DNA of 64,000 nt from Vicinamibacterales bacterium. Its GTDB lineage: Bacteria; Acidobacteriota; Vicinamibacteria; Vicinamibacterales; UBA2999. How positions within the stretch are numbered: position 1 is the stretch's first letter; each line of letters begins with the position of its first letter. A model generated the notes under the pieces. It had not been told where the DNA came from and did no database searches. It saw nothing but the letters and a program-made list of their open reading frames with translations. This document shows positions 13,167 to 52,472 of the stretch, in pieces. Location of the stretch: assembly GCA_050247355.1 (NCBI GenBank), contig JBFWUK010000011.1, forward strand, positions 68,847 through 132,846. The letters are read 5' to 3'. The position numbers were made by a program, and so were the translations under genes.

Positions 13167-14426
13167 TTATACGAGATGCCCCAGCCGGGAGCTGAGCCAT
13201 CTCTGTTCGGGCGCCGAACGCGCCCGGGTCAGCGCAATCCGGTAGTGGTCGGCGGCCTTTGCCAGGTCGCCGGCTTCGCGCCACAGCTCGGCTTGCACGG
13301 CGGGAAGCAGCGGGTAGTGTTCCAGCGCCGCCCGTCCGGCCATGCCGTCGAGGACGGCGAGCCCCGACAACGGCCCCTCGATGCGGGAAATCGCAATCGC
13401 CCGATTCAGGGCCACCACCGGGGAGGCCGTCAGGGCCAGCAACTCGTCGTACAGGTCCGCGATCTGCCGCCAGTCGGTTGCCTCCCAGGACGGAGCGACG
13501 GCGTGGCACGCGGCGATGCCGGCCTCGAGGTGGAAGGCGCTGACGCGGTCGCCGGCGGAAGCACGATCGAGGGCGCCCATGCCGGCAGCTATCGCCTCGC
13601 GGTCCCACTTGCCGCGATCCTGCTCGCGCAGCAGGAACAACGTGCCGTCCGAATCGACGCGCGCCGGGAACCGGGCCGCATGCAGGAGCATCAGGGCCAG
13701 CAGGGCCCACGCCTTTGGCGAGTCGGTCGCGGGGTGCGCGGCGACCAGCGATGCCAGCCGGATCGCCTCGCCCGCGACGTCGTCGCGAACCAGTGCGTCG
13801 CCCGCAGTGGCGGCGTAGCCCTCGTTGAAGATCAGGTAAAGCGAGTCGAGCACTGAATCAAGCCGGGGCGCAAGATCGGCCGGCGACGGCATGCCGAACC
13901 CGATCTCCTGGTCGCGCAGGTGCCGCTTGGCGCGCACCAGCCGTTGGGCAATCGTGCTGTCGTTGGCAAGAAAGGCGCGGGCGATCTCGCCGACGCTGAA
14001 ACCGCCGACCAGCTTGAGCGCCAGTGCGACCCTGGCATCGGCCGGCAGTTGCGGATGACAGGTCAGGAACAGCAGGCCGAGCTGGTCGTCATCCACCGGC
14101 GGCGGCTCGTCGCGGAGCAGCGCCGCGGCCGGTGGCTGGGGTGCCGGCCGCTCGCGCGCCAGCGCCGGTTGCTTGTCCGCGGCCATCCGCGCATGCCGCA
14201 GCCTGTCGAGGGCACGGTTCTTCGCCACCAGATACAGCCATGCTTCGGGTTGAGCGGGAATGCCGCGGAACGGCCACTGCTGGAGCGCGGCCATGAGGGC
14301 GTCCTGCACCGCGTCTTCGGCGAGGCCAAGGTGCCGCGAGCCGAGTGTCCGCGTGAGGGTGGCGACCATCTGTCCCGCCTGGCGGCGGAACAGATGCTCA
14401 ACAAGTGCGATCGAGTCGGCCGCCAC
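13167..14426 (-). CDS. ECF42-type RNA polymerase sigma factor with TPR/DUF6596 extension
   Basis: AEDAVQDA, DDQLGLLFLTCHP, EIARAFL...QRLVRAK, LYLIFNEGY, SPVVALNRA. Confidence 0.92.
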   Translation of the reverse strand: MAADSIALVEHLFRRQAGQMVATLTRTLGSRHLGLAEDAVQDALMAALQQWPFRGIPAQPEAWLYLVAKNRALDRLRHARMAADKQPALARERPAPQPPAAALLRDEPPPVDDDQLGLLFLTCHPQLPADARVALALKLVGGFSVGEIARAFLANDSTIAQRLVRAKRHLRDQEIGFGMPSPADLAPRLDSVLDSLYLIFNEGYAATAGDALVRDDVAGEAIRLASLVAAHPATDSPKAWALLALMLLHAARFPARVDSDGTLFLLREQDRGKWDREAIAAGMGALDRASAGDRVSAFHLEAGIAACHAVAPSWEATDWRQIADLYDELLALTASPVVALNRAIAISRIEGPLSGLAVLDGMAGRAALEHYPLLPAVQAELWREAGDLAKAADHYRIALTRARSAPEQRWLSSRLGHLV

Positions 14427-14428
14427 GG

Positions 14429-14776
14429 TTACGTGGGCTGTACCTCGCGGATCTCGATGATGCCGAAATCGAGGTGGGGGCAGTCTTTGCTGAGCTCGAC
14501 CACCTCTTCGTAGCTGGCCGCGTCAACCATGAACAGGCCGCCAATCACCTCGCGAGCCTCGGCGTACGGACCGTCGGTCACCTTCGGCGACCCCACGGCG
14601 CCGCGCAAAACGCGGCCGGCGCCGTCGGTCAGCTTGTGGCCCTCCACCTGGCGGCCGTTGGCCTGCACCCGCTGCTTCCACTCCACGTAGCGCTGGATGA
14701 TGGCCTGGATCTGATCGGGACTGAGGTCCGGCGGGAACGTCCCGGAGTCGTGCAGCAGCATGATGAACCTGGGCAT
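14429..14776 (-). CDS. YciI/DGPF family protein
   Basis: VTDGPYAEAREVIGG...CPH...IEIREV; the usual partner of ECF42. Confidence 0.9.
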   Translation of the reverse strand: MPRFIMLLHDSGTFPPDLSPDQIQAIIQRYVEWKQRVQANGRQVEGHKLTDGAGRVLRGAVGSPKVTDGPYAEAREVIGGLFMVDAASYEEVVELSKDCPHLDFGIIEIREVQPT

Positions 14777-14791
14777 TTCAGTGATCCTTGT

Positions 14792-14904
14792 CGGGAACCG
14801 GGACTCGGGACTCGGGAATCGATTCCCCGCCGGCCTTATCCCGATAACGTTCGGCACCTCAGGAAATCGACACGTCGATTCCGTTTTCGACTCCCGACTC
14901 CCGG
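14792..14904. repeat. Inverted 7-bp tandem-repeat arms (CGGGACT / CGACTCC) flanking the yciI promoter
   Basis: cgggaaccgggactcgggactcgggaatcg ... cgactcccgactcccgg. Confidence 0.6.
14846..14872 (-). promoter_or_regulatory. Putative ECF42-dependent promoter
   Basis: TGTCGA-N17-CGTT on the minus strand upstream of yciI-ECF42; matches the recalled ECF42 -35 element TGTCGA. Confidence 0.55.
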
Positions 14905-14909
14905 CAGGT

Positions 14910-16523
14910 TCAGTAGTCCATTCCGACCACAGCGCCCTGGTCGTCGACGTCGAGCTTCTGGGCTTGAGGCACCTTGCCGAGACCGGGCATCAGCATCATG
15001 CTGCCGGCAATCGCCACGACGAAGCCCGCGCCGGCCGAAAGTAATACCTCGCTGACGTTGAGCGTCCATCCCGACGGCGCGCCCATCTGCTTCGGATCGT
15101 CGGTGAACGAATACTGCGTCTTCGCGATGCACACCGGCAGCTCGCCGTAGCCAAGGGCCGCGAGTTTGGCCAGCCGCGACTTGGCCGCCGGCTTGAACGA
15201 GACCTTCCCCGCGCCGTAGACCTTGGTGGCGACGGCGGTAATCTTCTCCTCGAGCGTCTGGCGCGCCGTGTAGATGGGCCTGACCGCGCCGGGGTCTGAC
15301 ACTGCGGCCGCGGCCACCAGCTTCGCGGCCAGTGTGGTCATGCCGTCGCCGCCCTTGGTGTAGCCCTCGGCCAGCGCCGCGTCGGCGCCGATCGACTGGC
15401 AGTACGTCATCACGCGTTCGAGCTCGGCGTCGGTGTCGCCCGGGAAACGGTTCAGCGCGATCACCGCGGGCACTCCCCACCGCTTCAGGTTCTCCAGGTG
15501 GCGCGCCAGGTTCGGGAAGCCGGCGTCGACCGGACCATCGGGCGTGCCGCCCTGCGCCCGCAGCGCCTTGAGCGTCACAATCACCGCCGCCGCCGCCGGC
15601 ACGTGGCCGCACATCGGCATCACCAGGTCGAAGAACTTCTCGGCGCCGAGATCGGCGGCAAACCCGGTCTCGTTGACCACGTAGTCGGCCAGGTGCAGGC
15701 CGATGCGCTGCGCCAGCACGCTGCTGGTGCCGTGCGCGATGTTGGCGAACGGGCCGCAGTGCACGATGGCCGGGGCGCCCTCCGAGGTCTGCACCAGGTT
15801 CGGCAGCACCGCCTCGTTCAGCAGCACCATCATCGGACCGACGGCCTTGAGATCCTCCGCCGTCACGGCCTTGCCGTCGTAGCTGAAGCCGACGACGATG
15901 CGCGACAGGCGGCGGCGAAGGTCGGCCCGGCTTTCCGACAGGGCCAGAATCGCCATGATTTCGGAGGCGGCGGTAATCACGAAACCGGTCTCGCGCGCCG
16001 GGCCGCTCTCGCGCCCGCCCAGGCCGGTGGCAATCCGGCGCAGCGCGCGATCGTTCATGTCCATGCAGCGCGGCCACAGGATCTCGCGCGGATCGATGCG
16101 CAAGTCGTTGCCGAAATGCAGGTGCGTATCGAGCAGCGCCGCCAGCAGGTTGTGCGCCGCCGTGATGGCGTGGAAGTCGCCGGTGAAATGCAGGTTGATC
16201 TTGTCGAGCGGCGCGAGCGATGCCTGGCCGCCGCCGGTGGCGCCGCCCTTCATGCCGAACACCGGCCCCAGCGACGGCTCGCGCAGCGCCGCCACCGCGT
16301 GGTGCCCCAGCTTCACCAGGCCCTGCGTGATGCCGATGGTGTTGACCGTCTTACCCTCACCGCTGGTGGTTGGCGTGATGGCCGTGACGAGAATCAGCTT
16401 GCCCTTGCGCGTCGGGAAGCGATCGAGGGCTTCGAGGCGAATCTTGGCGATGAAGCGGCCGTAAGGTTCGAGGAGGTCTTCGGGCAGTCCAAGTCGCGAG
16501 GCAATCTCTGTAATGGGCAGCAT
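14910..16523 (-). CDS. fhs: Formate--tetrahydrofolate ligase
   Basis: ILVTAITPT..GEGKT, LREPSLGPVFGMKGGATGGG, INLHFTGDFHAI, HCGPFANIAHG, PVCIAKTQYSF. Confidence 0.97.
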   Translation of the reverse strand: MLPITEIASRLGLPEDLLEPYGRFIAKIRLEALDRFPTRKGKLILVTAITPTTSGEGKTVNTIGITQGLVKLGHHAVAALREPSLGPVFGMKGGATGGGQASLAPLDKINLHFTGDFHAITAAHNLLAALLDTHLHFGNDLRIDPREILWPRCMDMNDRALRRIATGLGGRESGPARETGFVITAASEIMAILALSESRADLRRRLSRIVVGFSYDGKAVTAEDLKAVGPMMVLLNEAVLPNLVQTSEGAPAIVHCGPFANIAHGTSSVLAQRIGLHLADYVVNETGFAADLGAEKFFDLVMPMCGHVPAAAAVIVTLKALRAQGGTPDGPVDAGFPNLARHLENLKRWGVPAVIALNRFPGDTDAELERVMTYCQSIGADAALAEGYTKGGDGMTTLAAKLVAAAAVSDPGAVRPIYTARQTLEEKITAVATKVYGAGKVSFKPAAKSRLAKLAALGYGELPVCIAKTQYSFTDDPKQMGAPSGWTLNVSEVLLSAGAGFVVAIAGSMMLMPGLGKVPQAQKLDVDDQGAVVGMDY

Positions 16524-16603
16524 GGGCGGCACCATCTTACTTGCTTCATGCCCCGCGCGTGGGTCGGGTCTTGCGGCCGGTTCAACCGGGCATCAGCCGC
16601 CAA

Positions 16604-17833
16604 TCAACCGCGTAGCACGGGCAGCGCCGCCGCCTGCCACTGACTGTCCCAGCGCTCGGCGGGATTCTCGAAGAGCCAGGCTTTCGACCGCCCCAGCGCC
16701 GAGGCCGGATCGATGGCCCGCGAGGCCACGGTGACGAGCACCGCGGCCAGGCCGCCGGGGTCGCGGAAGGTAATCCCCTCGCGGCCGCTCGTGATCACCT
16801 CGCCCAGCACCGGCGCGTAATCGAAAGCGGCCACCGGCACACCCGCGCCGCGAAAATCGGCGACCTTCATCGGCAGGTCGAGGCCCGAGGCCGACTGGTG
16901 CAGGCACAGGCCCAGATCGGCCATGCCAATCAGCAACGGATAGTCGGCCGGTTCGAGCCAGTGCGTGCGCACGGCAATGGACTTGAACGTGCGCCGCGCC
17001 AGTCGGGTCTCGAACGTTGGCCGGAGCGCGCCGCGGCCGGTAAGGATGACCGCCAGGCGCGGCGCCGGCGCTTCGCCGGTTGCGAGCTGGCGATCGGCGC
17101 GTTCGAGCGCTTCGAGCAGCAAGTCGAAATCCTCGTCGGGTGTCCAACTCGTGGGGCACACCACCAGCGGCAGCCGATCGACGCCGAGATTGGCTTCGCT
17201 GGCCAGGCGGCTCCACAAGGCCACGGCCGCCGACGGCAAGGTCGCTGTGAACACCGGCCCGGGCCGATCGTAGGCGACCGCGGCGCGGATGCCATAGCGG
17301 GCCGCGAGCCATTCGGCCAGGGCCTTCGACACCGCGAGGTGGCCGTCGGCGCGCCGCGCCCACCGGCGTTCACTCCGCGAGAGCGCCTTCACCGCGCGAT
17401 GGGTTTCGCCAAGACGAACGGCTGCCACGGTGTGCGAGAGGTTGTGCCAGTCGATTACGAGCCGTGAGCCGCGCAGCCGCGCGACCGTCCACGCGACGGC
17501 CAGCGTGGGCACGGCGGGCGGATTCTGGACGAGCAGCACGTCGGCCTTCGGCAGCCGCATCAGCATCACGAACAGGCGGCGCGCCTGTCCGATGGCCCTG
17601 GCCATCGATCCCGCCACGAACCGCTTGACCCCGCCCTTCGCGCGCCCCTGGAAGGCGTGGTCCGACAGCCTGTGGCAGGTCACGCGCGGGTGTTGCGCGA
17701 TCGCCGGCATCGGCGGGGCGCCCTCGAGGCCGACCAGGTCGACGTCGTGGCCCGCCTCGGCCAGCGACATCGCGTGATACTGCATCCGCGGGCTGCGGCC
17801 CAGATCTCCGAGTACGATAACGGCGGTTCGCAT
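16604..17833 (-). CDS. ALG1-like (GT33) beta-1,4-mannosyltransferase homolog
   Basis: [71 protein letters not shown], all matching recalled eukaryotic ALG1 motifs. Confidence 0.9.
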   Translation of the reverse strand: [409 protein letters not shown]

Positions 17834-17834
17834 A

Positions 17835-18821
17835 GTGACCGTGTACCTGCTGCTTGGCCTCAGTAGCTCTGCCCTGGCCCTGCTCTTGACTCCGCTGGTG
17901 TCCCGGGTCTCGACCCGGCTCGGACTGGTAGACGCCCCCGGCGGGCGGAAGGTTCACGCCCAATCGGTGCCCAGGCTTGGCGGCCTGGCCATCGTCATCG
18001 CCGCGGTGCTGGCGATGATACTCGCCCGTCTCTGGACGCCACGGGATTTCACCCCTGACGTTTTGGCCGCCCTTCAGCCGTTTGCCGCGGCCGGCGCCCT
18101 GATCTTCGCCCTCGGCCTGCTCGACGATGTGCGCGGCGTCGGGCCGGGGGCGAAGCTGAGCGTTCAGCTACTCGCCGCGGGCGTGTTGATGGCATCGGGG
18201 TTGCTGATCGAGCGCATCACGGTCGCCGGGGCGACCTGGGAGCTCGGCTGGCTGGCCTGGCCCGCGACCGCGGCGTGGCTGGTCGGACTAACCAACGCCT
18301 TCAACCTGATCGACGGCATCGATGGCCTGGCCGCGGGTATCGCGGTGCTGGCGGGCTCGGCCTGCGGCGCCATTCTGATCGTGCGCGGCCACCCGGCCGA
18401 AGCCATGATGCTGGCGGCGCTGGTCGGGGCGGCTGCGGGATTCCTGGTCTTCAATTTCGCGCCGGCCACCATCTTTCTCGGCGACAGCGGCAGCCTGTTG
18501 ATCGGATTCCTGCTGGCGGCTACAGCCATCGCCGGATGGCAGAAGGGCGCAACCGCGTTGGCCGCCGGCGTGCCCCTGCTCATCTTCGCGCTGCCGATTG
18601 CCGACGTGATCAGCACGATCGTCCGCCGCGCGCTGAGGCGGCCGGCCGATGGGCCGCCGGGCGTGCTCGCCGCCCTGCGGCAGTTGGTGGAGCCGGATCG
18701 CCAGCACATTCATCACCGTCTGCTCGCGCTCGGCTGGTCGCAACAGCAGACCGTACTGGTTCTCTACGGCGTGACCGCCGCGCTGTCATGGCTGGCGCTG
18801 GTCACCGCACAGCGGCCATGA
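17835..18821 (+). CDS. WecA/TagO-like polyprenyl-phosphate GlcNAc-1-phosphate transferase
   Basis: RKVH..PRLGG, GLLDD, NAFNLIDGIDGLA, FLGDSGS, PDRQHIHHRL. Confidence 0.92.
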   Translation: MTVYLLLGLSSSALALLLTPLVSRVSTRLGLVDAPGGRKVHAQSVPRLGGLAIVIAAVLAMILARLWTPRDFTPDVLAALQPFAAAGALIFALGLLDDVRGVGPGAKLSVQLLAAGVLMASGLLIERITVAGATWELGWLAWPATAAWLVGLTNAFNLIDGIDGLAAGIAVLAGSACGAILIVRGHPAEAMMLAALVGAAAGFLVFNFAPATIFLGDSGSLLIGFLLAATAIAGWQKGATALAAGVPLLIFALPIADVISTIVRRALRRPADGPPGVLAALRQLVEPDRQHIHHRLLALGWSQQQTVLVLYGVTAALSWLALVTAQRP

Positions 18822-19969
18822 AGCGCGTGCTGCTGGTGCAACCGTCGCTGCAACCGCCGGGCGGCGGCAACGGGGTGGCCGCGTGGGCCTTGCAGGCGCT
18901 CGTGTCCGCCCACCGCGTCACCGTGCTGACGTGGCGTCCCGTGGAAGTCGAGCCAATCAACCGGTTCTTCGGTACCAACCTGCGGCCGAGCAACTTCGAC
19001 ACAATCGTGGTTCCCGCCGCCTGGACCGCACTCCCCGACCGCCTGCCGACGCCGGCGGCGCTGCTGAAGCTATCGTTGCTGACGCGCTACACGCGTATGG
19101 TCAGCGCCGGCTTCGACGTGATCTTCGGGCTGCATAACGAGACCGACTACGGCCGGCGCGGCATTCAGTACATCCATTACCCCACTTACTTGCGGCCTCG
19201 GCCGCCGGCCGATCGACGTTGGTACCATCAACCGAAGGCCGCGCTGGCGGCGTACTACGCGCTGGCGGATCGCCTGGCCGGCCTCTCACTTGCGCGCGTG
19301 AAGTCGAACGTGACGCTCGTGAACTCGAACTGGACCGGCGAGCAAGTGCGCCGCCTGCTGGGCGGCAACCCGCGCACTCTGTATCCGCCGGTGACCGACC
19401 CGGGGCCTGGCCGGCCGTGGGCCCAGCGCGCGCCCGACTTCCTGGCGATCGGACGAATCGCGCCGGAGAAGGAGTACGAGAAGGTCATGCGCATTGTGGC
19501 GCGCGTGCGCGCCGACGGACACGACGCGAAACTGACAATCGTGGGGACGTGGGACCGGCACACGGCTGGCTACCTGGCCGGCCTGCAATCGCAGGCGCGG
19601 TCGTTGGGCGACTGGATCCGGTTTCGCGAGAACGTCAGCCGCGACGAGCTGCGCGACCTGATGGGATCGCATCGCTATGGCCTGCATGGCATGCGGGAAG
19701 AACATTTCGGCATGGCGCCGGCGGAACTGGCGCGCGCCGGCGTCGTGGTGTGGGTGGCGGCGGGTGGCGGCCAGGTCGAGATCGTCGGCGACGAACCGGC
19801 ACTGATCTATCAGTCGGAAGAAGACGCCGCGGCGAAGATCGTCGCCGTACTGTCCGACCCGCCGGCGCAGGAACGGCTGCGGCAGGGCCTCGCGGCAAGC
19901 GCGCCACGGTTCTCGACCGAGCGTTTCATGCACGAGATCCGCGAGGTCGTCGAGGACTTCAGCAACTGA
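18818..19969 (+). CDS. GT4 glycosyltransferase, ALG11-like
   Basis: GGGNGVAAW, QYIHYPT, VNSNWT, LYPPV, IGRIAPEK, YGLHGMREEHFGMAPAE. ATGA overlap with the wecA-like stop. Confidence 0.8.
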   Translation: MKRVLLVQPSLQPPGGGNGVAAWALQALVSAHRVTVLTWRPVEVEPINRFFGTNLRPSNFDTIVVPAAWTALPDRLPTPAALLKLSLLTRYTRMVSAGFDVIFGLHNETDYGRRGIQYIHYPTYLRPRPPADRRWYHQPKAALAAYYALADRLAGLSLARVKSNVTLVNSNWTGEQVRRLLGGNPRTLYPPVTDPGPGRPWAQRAPDFLAIGRIAPEKEYEKVMRIVARVRADGHDAKLTIVGTWDRHTAGYLAGLQSQARSLGDWIRFRENVSRDELRDLMGSHRYGLHGMREEHFGMAPAELARAGVVVWVAAGGGQVEIVGDEPALIYQSEEDAAAKIVAVLSDPPAQERLRQGLAASAPRFSTERFMHEIREVVEDFSN

Positions 19970-19973
19970 CGCC

Positions 19974-21743
<1,770 letters not shown>

Positions 21744-29566: not shown

Positions 29567-29680
29567 ACACCGATGGCGTTTCAACCCGGGCCGCAGATGA
29601 CACCGCTGGCGTTCTACCAGGGCCGCAGATGACACCACTGGCGTTTCACCAGGGCCGCAGATGACACAGATGACGCAGAT
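29567..29680. repeat. Three 32-bp tandem units containing GGGCCGCAGATGACAC
   Basis: Cores at 29588, 29620 and 29652; the last runs into the MTQMTQ start of the next CDS. Confidence 0.85.
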
Positions 29681-31304
29681 CAGGGTGATCGCGATTGCCA
29701 CCGTCGTGCTCGCGGCAACCCTTGTTGTCGGCGGGCAGACGCGTCGCTTTTTCCCGGACGATCCGATCTGGCGGGAGCCGGTCACGCAGGACGTCAAGAA
29801 CGCGACCCGCTACGAACCGGATCTGGCCTACCAGACGCTCGAGAACCTGTTCTGGCATCCGGGCGACAGCCAGACCGGCCAGCGGGCGAAGAACATCAAT
29901 ACCGTGGACGAAGTACCGGACGGCCCGTTCTTCGTCAACCGCGCCGGCCGGCTGCCGCTGACGCCGGCGCTGGTGGCGCGCGCGGCCAACACCAGCGACG
30001 GCCCGGTTGCCGGCCCGTGGACCGTCGTGTCGGCGAAGAGCGACGGTGTCACGCCGGGATTCACCATTCGCGACGCCGCCAACCAGCTGTGGTTCATCAA
30101 GTTCGATCCGCCCGGGTGGCGGGCGATGGCGACCGGCAGCGAGATTGTCGCGGCCAAGCTGTTCTGGGCCGCCGGTTACCACACGGCCGAATACCACATC
30201 GGGCAGTTGCAGCCGGCCAACCTGGTGATTGGCAAGGACACCCGCATCACGCCGCCGGGCGAAGCGCCGCGGGCCATGCAGCACAGCGATATCGCGTGGC
30301 TGCTGTCGCGCGCCGACCGCGACGCCGACGGCAGCTACCGGGTGATTTTGAGCAAGGCCACGCCGGGCCGGCCGGTCGGCCGCATCGGCTTTCATGGCAC
30401 GCGCGCCGACGATCCCAACGACATCGTCCCGCACGAGCATCGCCGGGAGTTGCGCGGCTACTTCGTGTTCGCGGCGTGGCTCAACCACGTCGATGCCAAG
30501 GGCATCAACTCGCTGTCGTCGCTCGTCACCGAGAACGGCCGCAGCTTCATTCGCCATTACCTGCTCGACTTCGGCTCGGCGCTGGGCAGCGCCGCCGTCG
30601 GCCCGCGCGAGGGCTGGGAGGGCTACGAAGCCCTGCTCGAGCAACCGGGCGATATCGGCAAGCGCGTGCTGTCGTTCGGCTTCAAGATTCCGCGGTGGCG
30701 CACGCAGGACTACTTCGAGTCGCCCGCCATCGGCCGCCTGCCGCGCGACCATGCCGAGTGGGACCCCGAGTCGTGGTGGCCGCACATCACCAACGCCGCT
30801 TTCAGGCACAGCCGGGCCGACGATACGTTCTGGGCGGCCACGAAACTGGCCGCGATCAGCGACGACATGATCAAGGCCGCGGTCAGCGAGGGAAAGTTCG
30901 GCGACCCGGTTTCCGAGGCGTTCCTGGCGAAGGCCATCTCCGATCGGCGGCTGCGAATCCTGCAGGCGTTTCTACCCAAGGTGAACCCGCTGGTCGATGC
31001 CGCCATCGACGACAACCGGTTGACCTTCCGGAACATTGCCGTCGAGATGGCGGTTGCCGACCGCGCCCCCGGCTACCGCGCGCTGTGGTACACGTTCGAC
31101 AACCTGGCCGACAAAGCCACGCTGGTGGCGACCACCGAGGAAACGCAGAGCCCGCTCCCCGTGCCGGCGCTGCCCGCCTCGGAGTTCATCAAGGTCGACA
31201 TCTCGGCGGTCGGTGGCCCCGAGGCCTGGAGCCGGCCTATTTCCGTGTATTTCCGAAGAAATTCCTCGGGTTGGAGCCTGGTCGGCCTCGAACGGATGCC
31301 CTGA
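29661..31304 (+). CDS. Secreted hypothetical protein with HipA/PI3K-like kinase motifs
   Basis: Signal peptide; DGVTPGF, WFIKFD, ATGSE, WLNHVDAKGIN, YLLDFG. Confidence 0.65.
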   Translation: MTQMTQIRVIAIATVVLAATLVVGGQTRRFFPDDPIWREPVTQDVKNATRYEPDLAYQTLENLFWHPGDSQTGQRAKNINTVDEVPDGPFFVNRAGRLPLTPALVARAANTSDGPVAGPWTVVSAKSDGVTPGFTIRDAANQLWFIKFDPPGWRAMATGSEIVAAKLFWAAGYHTAEYHIGQLQPANLVIGKDTRITPPGEAPRAMQHSDIAWLLSRADRDADGSYRVILSKATPGRPVGRIGFHGTRADDPNDIVPHEHRRELRGYFVFAAWLNHVDAKGINSLSSLVTENGRSFIRHYLLDFGSALGSAAVGPREGWEGYEALLEQPGDIGKRVLSFGFKIPRWRTQDYFESPAIGRLPRDHAEWDPESWWPHITNAAFRHSRADDTFWAATKLAAISDDMIKAAVSEGKFGDPVSEAFLAKAISDRRLRILQAFLPKVNPLVDAAIDDNRLTFRNIAVEMAVADRAPGYRALWYTFDNLADKATLVATTEETQSPLPVPALPASEFIKVDISAVGGPEAWSRPISVYFRRNSSGWSLVGLERMP

Positions 31305-51170: not shown

Positions 51171-52472
51171 TCAGCCGCGCTTGCGCCAGCGCGGTCCGTG
51201 AATCGCCAGGTCGACCGCATCACCCGGGGTCTGGACCGAAAGGCCATCGGCCCGGGCGTCGCGAATGAACTTGGCGTCGACCCGGTGAATCCTCATGCGG
51301 ACGAGCTGGTCTTCCGACACGGTAACGAAGCCGACGTCGCGCATGGCCTTGATGTAATCGGGTGTCACGCGGTGGATGCGGAACTTCACGAGCTGGGCGA
51401 TGCTCATGCCGCCGAAGCCGAGCGCCTTCAACTGGTCCATCTCTTCCGGCTTCACGCCGTGGATCCGCATCTTGACCAGGTCTTCGGCGGCCACGTCCTT
51501 GTAGCCGCGCGAGTTGAGCGCGGCGATGAAGTCGCCCGTGACCCGGTGGATCCGGAACTTGACCATCTGGTCGATGCTCATCGAGGCAAAGCCGGCGCTC
51601 TTCAACCGATCGATCTCCTCGGGCGTCACATTGTGAACTCGCATCTTGATCAGGTCTTCCGCCGGCACGTTGCGGTAGCCGCGCGATTCAAGGGCGCGGA
51701 CGAACTCAGGCGTCACGCGGTGAATGCGGAACTTGATCAGCTCCTCGACCGACTGGCCGCGAAAGCCGGCGGCCTGCAGGGCCTTGATGTTGGCGGGCGT
51801 GGCGCCGTGAATGCCCATGCGGACGAGGTCGTCCACGTTGATGCCCTTGTAACCAACCGCCGCGAGGTCGCGCACGAACTCCGGCGTCACGCGGTGGATG
51901 CGCGTGCGAACGATGTCGTCCAGCGACAGGTTGGCATAGCCGGCCTGGGCCAGGCCGCGGACATGCGCAACCGTCACGCCAATCACCGCGAGCCGGACGA
52001 TGTTGTCGGTGGAGAGGGAGCGGTAGCCGGCGGCCCCCATGTTGGTGATGAAGGCCTGGTCGGCCGTGAAGGCGTAGGTGCCGTTGCCGCGGCCCTGGTC
52101 GAACGAACCGGTGAACCGGAACGTCCCGGCCTCGCGCGTCCAACTGAACTGGACGTCGTTGGCGGTGCTGGCCAACGCCGATGCCGGAAGCCCGACCAGG
52201 TCGCGCAGCTTGACGCCGAACCCCCAGCGATTATCGCCGGCGTTGCCACGCAGATTGATCTGCACGCGCGGCTCCCCGTCATCGTCCCGCCACGTGTTGC
52301 GGGAATCGGCGGTCCAATCACCCGACACAGATGCGGTCTGGAGTTCCCGGGCCGCAGACCTGTCCGCCGTAGCGCGAAGCGCGAAGGTGGATGGCGCAGA
52401 GGCCAACGGGGCCGCAGATGACGCAGATGACGCAGAAAGAATGACCAGGGCTAGGGCGGCAAGTCGTCGCAT
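51171..52472 (-). CDS. Secreted protein with about 10 tandem 29-aa (R/K)xxIHxVTP repeats
   Basis: Signal peptide; IH motifs spaced 87 nt apart. Confidence 0.8.
   Translation of the reverse strand: MRRLAALALVILSASSASSAAPLASAPSTFALRATADRSAARELQTASVSGDWTADSRNTWRDDDGEPRVQINLRGNAGDNRWGFGVKLRDLVGLPASALASTANDVQFSWTREAGTFRFTGSFDQGRGNGTYAFTADQAFITNMGAAGYRSLSTDNIVRLAVIGVTVAHVRGLAQAGYANLSLDDIVRTRIHRVTPEFVRDLAAVGYKGINVDDLVRMGIHGATPANIKALQAAGFRGQSVEELIKFRIHRVTPEFVRALESRGYRNVPAEDLIKMRVHNVTPEEIDRLKSAGFASMSIDQMVKFRIHRVTGDFIAALNSRGYKDVAAEDLVKMRIHGVKPEEMDQLKALGFGGMSIAQLVKFRIHRVTPDYIKAMRDVGFVTVSEDQLVRMRIHRVDAKFIRDARADGLSVQTPGDAVDLAIHGPRWRKRG

Follow-up and report, generated by a model that had tools for sequence, protein, structure and literature searches.

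The open reading frame 16604..17833 of a 64-kb stretch of DNA (hereafter the window, positions 68847-132846 of contig C11) from the 5.49-Mb genome G000 of a Vicinamibacterales soil bacterium (Acidobacteriota) was identified, on the basis of its translation, to encode a true ALG1-family protein (glycosyltransferase (GT) family GT33) which is cytoplasmic and devoid of a membrane anchor. With good confidence, the protein is taken to be an ALG1-family mannosyltransferase working on a primer of lipid diphosphate (PP)-linked N-acetylglucosamine (GlcNAc), and activity as a putative GDP-mannose (GDP-Man)-dependent beta-1,4-mannosyltransferase is predicted for this clade from its homologues. The gene context suggests a mosaic pathway linked to an oligosaccharyltransferase (OST) in this acidobacterial family, and eukaryote-like clusters of GT28, ALG1, ALG2, flippase and STT3 genes in other bacteria.

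An earlier note on this DNA, made from the letters alone, had recognised near-verbatim motifs of eukaryotic ALG1 in the protein, and the stretches quoted there, [37 protein letters not shown] and [33 protein letters not shown], were both found in the translation. An exhaustive search of 1.84 billion cluster representatives with the 409-aa protein as query returned 3530 matches at E<=1e-3, 1997 at 1e-10 and 896 at E<=1e-30. Names were looked up for 30 of the 150 listed representatives, and among them were one Phycisphaeraceae bacterium and eight eukaryotes (Chrysoparadoxa, Globisporangium, Phalansterium, Hyaloraphidium, Entophlyctis, Cyanophora, Piptocephalis and one further EukProt record), the latter matched at E 1e-66 to 1e-78 with 39-45% identity; the Globisporangium match carries the UniRef name 'Beta-1,4-mannosyltransferase'. 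Alignment of the window protein with two bacterial homologues and six of the named eukaryotes revealed 37-43% identity to these eukaryotes and placed the quoted motifs in invariant or near-invariant blocks. The same blocks remained invariant or nearly so when 74 diverse homologues were aligned, for which 11 invariant and 47 nearly invariant columns were counted, and in both alignments the window protein was found to hold all family blocks, i.e., GDxGRSPRM, QxPP, DWHN, TSWTxDED and ADLGxxLHxSxSGxDLPMK. Hence, the protein shares with eukaryotic ALG1 a significant full-length similarity to its bona fide members (37-45% identity), the invariant motif blocks and, as outlined below, the GT-B fold.

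Profile libraries were less specific, as Pfam recognised solely the generic Glyco_transf_4 N-domain (PF13439, 6e-11), no family was matched in the NCBIfam search, and sequence searches of the Protein Data Bank (PDB) gave no match, neither for the protein alone nor for the 74-sequence profile. The AlphaFold2 model (pLDDT 95.8, pTM 0.93) shows the two Rossmann domains of the GT-B fold, and its best solved counterparts identified with Foldseek are GT-B enzymes of family GT4 (BshA, BA1558) with TM-scores of 0.66-0.70 and an identity of at most 19%; no GT33 structure is contained in the PDB copy that was searched with sequence, profile and model. An N-terminal transmembrane anchor, which is not catalytic, is typical of yeast and human ALG1. 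The window protein begins in strand 1 of the modelled Rossmann fold, and no hydrophobic anchor was found when the whole protein was scanned (highest 19-residue Kyte-Doolittle mean 1.44), so that the absence of an anchor and the start at the catalytic domain, both proposed in the earlier note, were borne out. For comparison, a strong N-terminal hydrophobic segment (19-residue Kyte-Doolittle 2.3-2.7) is present in two of the eight named eukaryotic sequences, as stored.

The gene context was compared among 48 related loci of at least 51% identity (L002-L048 and L053), many of which are short contigs. In 44 of these loci the ALG1-like gene adjoins a gene for a WecA/MraY-family polyprenyl-phosphate GlcNAc-1-P transferase (GPT) homologue. 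Both genes are arranged head-to-head, with their divergent start codons (17833 and 17835) only 1 bp apart, a spacing which recurs as 0-3 bp in many related loci according to tblastn coordinates; as a consequence, each promoter must sit within the opposite gene. A scan of positions 16300-20200 for sigma-70-like promoters yielded no site. The best NCBIfam model for the wecA-like protein is ECA_wecA (TIGR02380, 123.6 bits, under its cut-off of 326), its solved relatives are all MraY (best 4j72, 6.6e-14), and no DPAGT1 was matched at E<=1e-3 among solved structures; by these sequence relationships the GPT is of bacterial type and not close to ALG7/DPAGT1.

Downstream of the wecA-like gene, and translationally coupled to it as judged from the ATGA overlap of its start with the wecA-like stop codon, a GT4 glycosyltransferase gene is located, which is present in 45 of the 48 loci. 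Its product possesses the motifs PPGGGNGVAAW and EHFGMAPAE and lacks the signatures G-I-G-G-A-E-R and E-H-F-G-I-V-P-L-E, which are given for ALG2 in a 2025 preprint (10.1101/2025.10.15.682550). The sole solved relative of this GT4 is the A. fulgidus 'first mannosyl transferase wbaZ-1' (1.4e-5), and the Atlas search returned generic GT4 clusters only, acidobacterial and then archaeal ones, with no ALG2 or ALG11 label among the matches. Pfam ALG11_N was not among its matches at E<=0.01, and a likeness of its GGGxxVxxW loop to ALG11 is therefore not claimed. The fourth gene, found in 38 of the 48 loci, encodes an ATP-binding cassette (ABC) exporter which aligns over its full length (residues 75-570, 6.7e-63) with C. 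jejuni PglK/WlaB (6hrc), the best half-transporter among the solved structures listed. The NCBIfam models for HepA, MsbA and PglK score it about equally, all under cut-off, and the exporter is considered a candidate flippase for a lipid-linked glycan. The sugar donor may be provided by a candidate mannose-1-P guanylyltransferase encoded in the genome (NF052502, 294.7 bits, under the cut-off of 440).

A genome search with the Pfam STT3 model identified an OST gene on the same contig, located 56 kb downstream of the ALG1-like gene. The encoded protein carries the PF02516 STT3 N-domain (82.5 bits) and an AglB_core-like domain (64 bits), reaches 444.5 bits with archaeo_STT3 (TIGR04154), the cut-off of which is 450, and has WWDQGYW instead of WWDYG. 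Among solved structures, A. fulgidus AglB is its closest relative (1e-59, residues 15-600), and by these sequence characteristics the OST is an archaeal-type AglB in a bacterium. Divergent from the OST gene lies an Asparaginase_2 (PF01112) gene, which adjoins the OST in the window genome and in three of five other genomes (G325, G316 and G342). Its product could be a glycosylasparaginase, the best NCBIfam model being beta-aspartyl peptidase, far under cut-off. The next gene encodes a weakly PMT_2-like GT-C protein (24 bits).

Both the ALG1-like and the AglB-like gene were searched for in one set of 121 genomes from the window's family. The ALG1-like gene was found in 36 and the AglB-like gene in 31 of them: 30 genomes carry both, six the ALG1-like gene only, one the AglB-like gene only and 84 neither, and the OST of the single AglB-like-only genome is a fragment. 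On one contig the two genes reside in 19 of the 30 genomes, at distances from 3.4 to about 128 kb. A compact set comprising ALG1-like, MurG-like GT28, wecA-like, AglB-like OST, ABC exporter and GT4 genes was identified in genome G289. Furthermore, two genomes of the window's genus are apparent cases of the module decaying together: in G338 (contig C54) the ALG1-like gene is absent, the OST persists as two fragments only and the GT4 as a remnant interrupted by a stop codon, and in G358 (contig C2) the ALG1-like gene is interrupted by TGA, with GT4 and OST being absent. In two divergent family members, genes of extra eukaryote-flavoured glycosyltransferase families were seen near the ALG1-like gene, namely a GT10 fucosyltransferase-like gene (1.1e-10) and a GINT1_N domain gene (3.9e-58).

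Outside this family, tight clusters joining ALG1-like, GT28, GT4, ABC exporter and STT3 genes occur in other phyla (Table 1). STT3 was found above cut-off in four of five genomes with a more distant ALG1-like gene, in each within a few kb of it. Compact ALG1-like/OST clusters are present in L050, L049, L052, L055 and L129, as they are in G289 of the window's family, and a GT28 gene flanks the ALG1-like gene in G289, G284, L050, L055, L056, L100, L147 and L151. Signature motifs identify ALG2-like GT4s in L151 (GIGGAER, EHFGYVPLE) and L050 (GIGGGER, EHFGYGIVE). The GT4s located directly after the ALG1-like gene in L054, L055 and L056 are of a different type and 36-38% identical to the window GT4. 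In L055 and L056, both cultured Rhodospirillales, autotransporter genes directly follow the ALG1-like/GT4 pair, and their products are candidate glycoprotein substrates. Formate-tetrahydrofolate ligase adjoins the ALG1-like gene not only in the window and most related loci but also in the distant L129, which hints at an old shared synteny.

Table 1. Location of the genes and gene clusters discussed; positions without a locus prefix refer to the window
Feature	Position	Strand	Remarks
ALG1-like (GT33-family) GT-B glycosyltransferase	16604..17833	-	409 aa, ATG start, no membrane anchor
WecA/MraY-family polyprenyl-phosphate GlcNAc-1-P transferase homologue	17835..18821	+	PF00953 7.6e-38
GT4 glycosyltransferase	18818..19969	+	EX7E motif, presumably retaining; PF00534 8e-17
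ABC exporter, MsbA/PglK type	19974..21743	-	fused transmembrane and nucleotide-binding domains (TMD-NBD); PF00005 + PF00664; convergent on wecA-like/GT4 pair
AglB-like OST	G000:C11:142699-144990 = L061:9850-12144	- (in L061)	764 aa; outside window, from Pfam STT3 genome search
Asparaginase_2 gene	L061:12178-13293	+	
PMT_2-like GT-C gene	L061:13290-15011	-	
Formate-tetrahydrofolate ligase (FTHFS)	14910-16535	-	
Formate-tetrahydrofolate ligase (FTHFS)	L129:12080-13738	+	
ECF-type sigma factor with DUF6596, then YCII-domain protein	13167-14857	-	just upstream of FTHFS
ORF without Pfam family	29661-31304	+	547 aa
ORF without Pfam family	51171-52472	-	433 aa
GT10 fucosyltransferase-like gene	L069:10031-11029	-	
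GINT1_N domain gene	L068:16778-17740	-	
Autotransporter gene	L055:10483-13401	+	
Autotransporter gene	L056:10413-12989	+	
Binatia-like cluster	L050		wecA-like, STT3, STT3, MurG-like GT28, ALG1-like, GT4, ABC exporter, then tig-clpP-clpX
Telmatospirillum sp. J64-1 cluster	L055		ManC, STT3, ABC-2 permease, GT28, ALG1-like, GT4, autotransporter, PglC-type transferase
Fodinicurvata cluster	L056		GT28, ALG1-like, GT4, autotransporter
Metagenome cluster	L129		STT3-type OST ends 68 bp before ALG1-like
Metagenome cluster	L151		GT28, ALG1-like, GT4, ABC exporter

Further genes of the window have no evident link to the cluster, among them FTHFS, MatE, PntAB, peptidases and others. An ECF-type (extracytoplasmic function) sigma factor and a YCII-domain protein are encoded side by side, and two well-coded reading frames (GC3, i.e., G+C at the third codon position, 0.85-0.89) match no Pfam family.

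Considering the gene set as a whole, a chain is proposed which leads from WecA-like priming to protein N-glycosylation by the AglB-like OST, a reading that we favour with modest confidence. Initially, the WecA-like enzyme would place GlcNAc-1-P onto undecaprenyl phosphate, whereupon the ALG1-like enzyme would add a beta-1,4-linked mannose from GDP-Man, the presumed donor, to the GlcNAc-terminated lipid-PP primer, which may comprise one or two GlcNAc residues. Next, the GT4 coupled to wecA would add an alpha-linked hexose, probably mannose, provided that the transferases act in this order. The lipid-linked oligosaccharide would then be flipped by the PglK-like ABC exporter, and finally the AglB-like OST would move the glycan to Asn residues of exported proteins, the likely targets.

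Several observations weigh against this chain. For instance, no ManC of the Telmatospirillum type was found in the genome. Those concerning the OST would fit an alternative in which the same beta-mannosyltransferase chemistry takes place on an undecaprenyl-PP primer and the product is a surface polysaccharide, an O-antigen-like polymer, a glycolipid or an O-linked glycan, the link to AglB then reflecting shared ancestry in one subclade; this alternative is regarded as possible, if on the doubtful side. The OST is not located inside the ALG1-like cluster, as 56 kb separate the two in the window genome and 24-128 kb in the window's genus and genus g5. Five of the ALG1-like family genomes, three of them at least 97% complete, gave no STT3-family match, and neither did the Fodinicurvata genome. 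STT3-family matches were obtained in 26 of 251 sampled Acidobacteriota genomes (a count including the unpublished genome G029), and the ALG1-like gene in four, each of which belongs to the window's family and also gave an STT3 match; it follows that the OST does not need the ALG1-like protein. Moreover, co-occurrence counted among relatives is non-independent evidence. For 63 metagenome loci of 40-52% identity (L105 and L050 being one sequence), the fetched flanks contained an OST in only three cases, GT28 in four and an ALG2-like GT4 in four, many of these contigs being short and tblastn being insensitive for OSTs. When four long match-free loci were inspected by Pfam, the genes around the ALG1-like gene proved to be those for xanthine-dehydrogenase subunits, amidohydrolase, allantoicase, a LysR regulator and similar proteins. 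Most of the 63 loci belong to one large soil clade of metagenome origin, in which the ALG1-like gene stands alone in unrelated contexts: at the orphan loci L097, L114, L154, L113 and L111 it lies among genes of purine-catabolism type (xanthine-dehydrogenase FAD and Mo subunits, amidohydrolase, allantoicase), with no glycosylation gene within up to 10 kb. As they form a single clade with 100% support, these orphan loci amount to about one lineage. In view of the distant metagenome loci, a general clustering of ALG1-like genes with an OST was rejected. Also, WecA, GT4 and an ABC exporter make up the layout of many polysaccharide pathways. On the other hand, only one of the 31 OST-positive family genomes lacks the ALG1-like gene, and there the OST is broken; the two cases of joint decay and the six compact ALG1-like/OST clusters likewise speak against this alternative, and the genes seen in the window cluster include neither a polymerase nor a ligase.

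The remaining observations concern the partner enzymes and would fit an ALG1-family protein of different specificity, acting directly on undecaprenyl-PP-GlcNAc, on another primer or with another nucleotide sugar, its GT28 partner having been lost and a non-ALG2 GT4 having been paired with it instead; we judge this unlikely. In the window genome the Alg14 domain (PF08660) was matched nowhere, and GT28_C (PF04101) gave one match only, presumably MurG, on contig C21. An Alg13/14-like GT28 is likewise absent from G343 and G170, yet a GT28 gene flanks the ALG1-like gene in the eight other loci or genomes listed above; as a consequence, the eukaryotic acceptor GlcNAc2-PP-lipid may not be made in the window lineage. 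The lack of ALG2 motifs in the window GT4 points in the same direction, as do the assays of five bacterial homologues in the preprint (10.1101/2025.10.15.682550), in which those from a deltaproteobacterium and from Methylomirabilota were inactive on GlcNAc2-PP-phytanyl and did not complement yeast alg1. Against a changed specificity stands the fact that the window protein keeps the nearly invariant family columns, and that Rhodospirillales, which have the same GT4 type and belong to the same tree group, retain GT28.

A wider scenario goes beyond the N-glycosylation chain and is put forward only tentatively, as we consider it rather doubtful: several phyla (the Vicinamibacterales family, Binatia-like bacteria, Rhodospirillales and soil lineages) would run OST-dependent N-glycosylation via an Alg13/14-like GT28, an ALG1-like and, in some lineages, an ALG2-like enzyme, which would yield a eukaryote-type GlcNAc2-Man core, and the eukaryotic cytosolic mannosylation block would have been inherited from a pre-assembled bacterial cluster and not gene by gene. 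The window lineage would then be a derived mosaic, with an archaeal-type AglB swapped in and GT28 lost.

As to the origin of the family, phylogenetic trees, all of them unrooted, were calculated with FastTree for 152 rows (140 of the 150 representatives, the query and 11 named loci, ten representatives with lengths outside 340-560 aa being dropped) and with IQ-TREE for hand-picked subsets of 87, 75 and 65 rows. The statement of the earlier note that GT33 is mainly eukaryotic is outdated, given the 896 representatives at E<=1e-30, the fact that only 46 of the 152 FastTree rows fall into the clade holding all named eukaryotes, and the bacterial homologues already in print (see below). A eukaryote clan was obtained in every tree, with a support of 96 (SH-like) in the FastTree tree, of 98 (87 rows) and 94 (75 rows) in the poorly optimised short-search trees under LG+C20, and of 99/93 in the careful search with 65 rows, where all eight named eukaryotes are in and every named bacterial sequence is out; the remaining rows of this clan were taken as eukaryotic by position only. 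The query resides inside a Vicinamibacterales clade (100/100), which forms together with Rhodospirillales and few further rows a group of 13 rows set against the other 52 (89/94, careful tree). In the same tree the eukaryotic clan is part of a polytomy with at least nine bacterial lineages of varied gene contexts. In an approximately unbiased (AU) test, a clan uniting eukaryotes and Vicinamibacterales was not rejected (p-AU 0.75), the constrained tree being 21.7 log-likelihood units above the short free search; after this test, a demonstrable distance between the query clade and the eukaryotes was no longer claimed. A search of the genome for paralogues at E<=1e-3 matched only the ALG1-like protein itself, for which reason any outgroup would be too distant. 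As far as these sequences and a weak tree backbone allow, eukaryotic ALG1 is hence one clan in a diverse, mostly bacterial family.

An ancient transfer of ALG1 from a eukaryote to a bacterium, followed by spread among bacteria, is considered highly improbable. An unrooted tree leaves room for a root inside the eukaryotes, the joint clan with Vicinamibacterales passed the AU test, and the distribution within Acidobacteriota is patchy (one family). Such a transfer is opposed by the single clan of named eukaryotes free of named bacterial sequences, by the depth of the bacterial lineages, which belong to several phyla and differ in their partner genes, by the operon-like clusters in which the bacterial copies stand with bacterial-type GPT and MurG-like genes, and by the identity of 37-45% to eukaryotes, which is not above that to other bacterial clades. 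Of the two origins offered in the earlier note, this transfer is therefore not supported, in view of the one eukaryote clan among so many bacterial lineages, and the other, in which a prokaryotic lineage sheds light on how ALG1 arose, is the better half.

By composition and synteny, the ALG1-like gene is native to the Vicinamibacterales genome. G+C is 0.64-0.71 along the whole window, the codon-position G+C of the gene is 0.74/0.54/0.86, and its GC3 of 0.86 is like that of its neighbours, in line with the native G+C content noted earlier. The closest homologues (68-98% identity) come from metagenome genomes of Vicinamibacterales/Acidobacteriota, and many of them carry the label 'beta-1,4-mannosyltransferase' from the JGI pipeline; the best matches are thus not GT4 enzymes of other function, and the contig is not chimeric, since the same neighbourhood recurs in related genomes. 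An assembly artefact, be it a chimeric contig or eukaryotic contamination, is practically negligible, given the uniform G+C and GC3, a genome completeness of 99.8% with 0.5% contamination, and the conserved synteny in dozens of related genomes, which by itself refutes it.

A survey of the pathway from 2016 could not place Alg1 and regarded its origin as unknown, with a eukaryotic innovation as one possibility (Lombard 2016, PMC4973528). The existence of bacterial ALG1 is already in print: the 2025 preprint (10.1101/2025.10.15.682550) argues for a bacterial ancestry of ALG1 from BLAST and enzyme assays, reporting 204 bacterial homologues from BLAST searches and none in archaea that is reliable. 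Of the five homologues assayed there, the three from Gammaproteobacteria, Polyangia and Binatia were active, as they were able to replace alg1 in yeast and formed Man-GlcNAc2-PP-phytanyl. The main text of the preprint contains none of the words Acidobacter-, Vicinamibacter-, operon, gene cluster, transmembrane, STT3 or PglB, and its supplementary tables may list such sequences. A full-text literature search gave no paper linking bacterial ALG1 to OST clusters and none on an AglB-type enzyme in Acidobacteriota. Hence, bacterial ALG1 is known from the preprint and from automatic annotation, and what is new here is the gene context.

Compared with known systems, the window protein would, like eukaryotic ALG1, work at the cytoplasmic face on lipid-PP-linked acceptors; unlike it, it has no N-terminal anchor, its carrier would be undecaprenyl and not dolichyl, and the tests applied to its genome revealed no Alg13/14, ALG2 or ALG11 partner. 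It belongs to the same family as the preprint's GaALG1, PoALG1 and BiALG1 (the Binatia-type loci L049-L052 are 42-43% identical to it), for which the preprint shows beta-1,4-mannosyltransferase activity, and differs from them in falling into another clade, that of Vicinamibacterales grouping with Rhodospirillales. With the Campylobacter pgl system the proposed pathway would share an initiating phosphoglycosyltransferase, cytoplasmic GT-B enzymes, an ABC flippase for which PglK is the closest half-transporter, and a single-subunit STT3-family OST; unlike in pgl, the initiator is of WecA/MraY type and not PglC-type, the key transferase is a GT33 enzyme, and the distant OST is AglB-type and not PglB-type. 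Likeness to the archaeal Agl systems is seen in the OST, for which the acidic and WWDxG motifs align with A. fulgidus AglB-L (PDB 3waj/5gmy), and in the window GT4, whose nearest feature-based neighbours include archaeal GT4 clusters. In contrast to Agl, the host is a bacterium, the GPT is of bacterial type, and a reliable archaeal ALG1 homologue is not reported in the main text of the preprint.

The gene contexts described here give bacterial ALG1 enzymes a testable physiological role. As its fold is predicted with high confidence and no relative has been solved, the anchor-less bacterial ALG1 is a good target for a first GT33 structure, and natural bacterial sets of ALG1, ALG2, flippase and OST could serve glyco-engineering in E. 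coli. If Asn-linked glycans of GlcNAc2-Man type are indeed made, bacterial N-glycosylation would be broader than the paradigm of Campylobacter and Desulfovibrio, and a bacterial operon would be a plausible precursor of the eukaryotic cytosolic assembly line.

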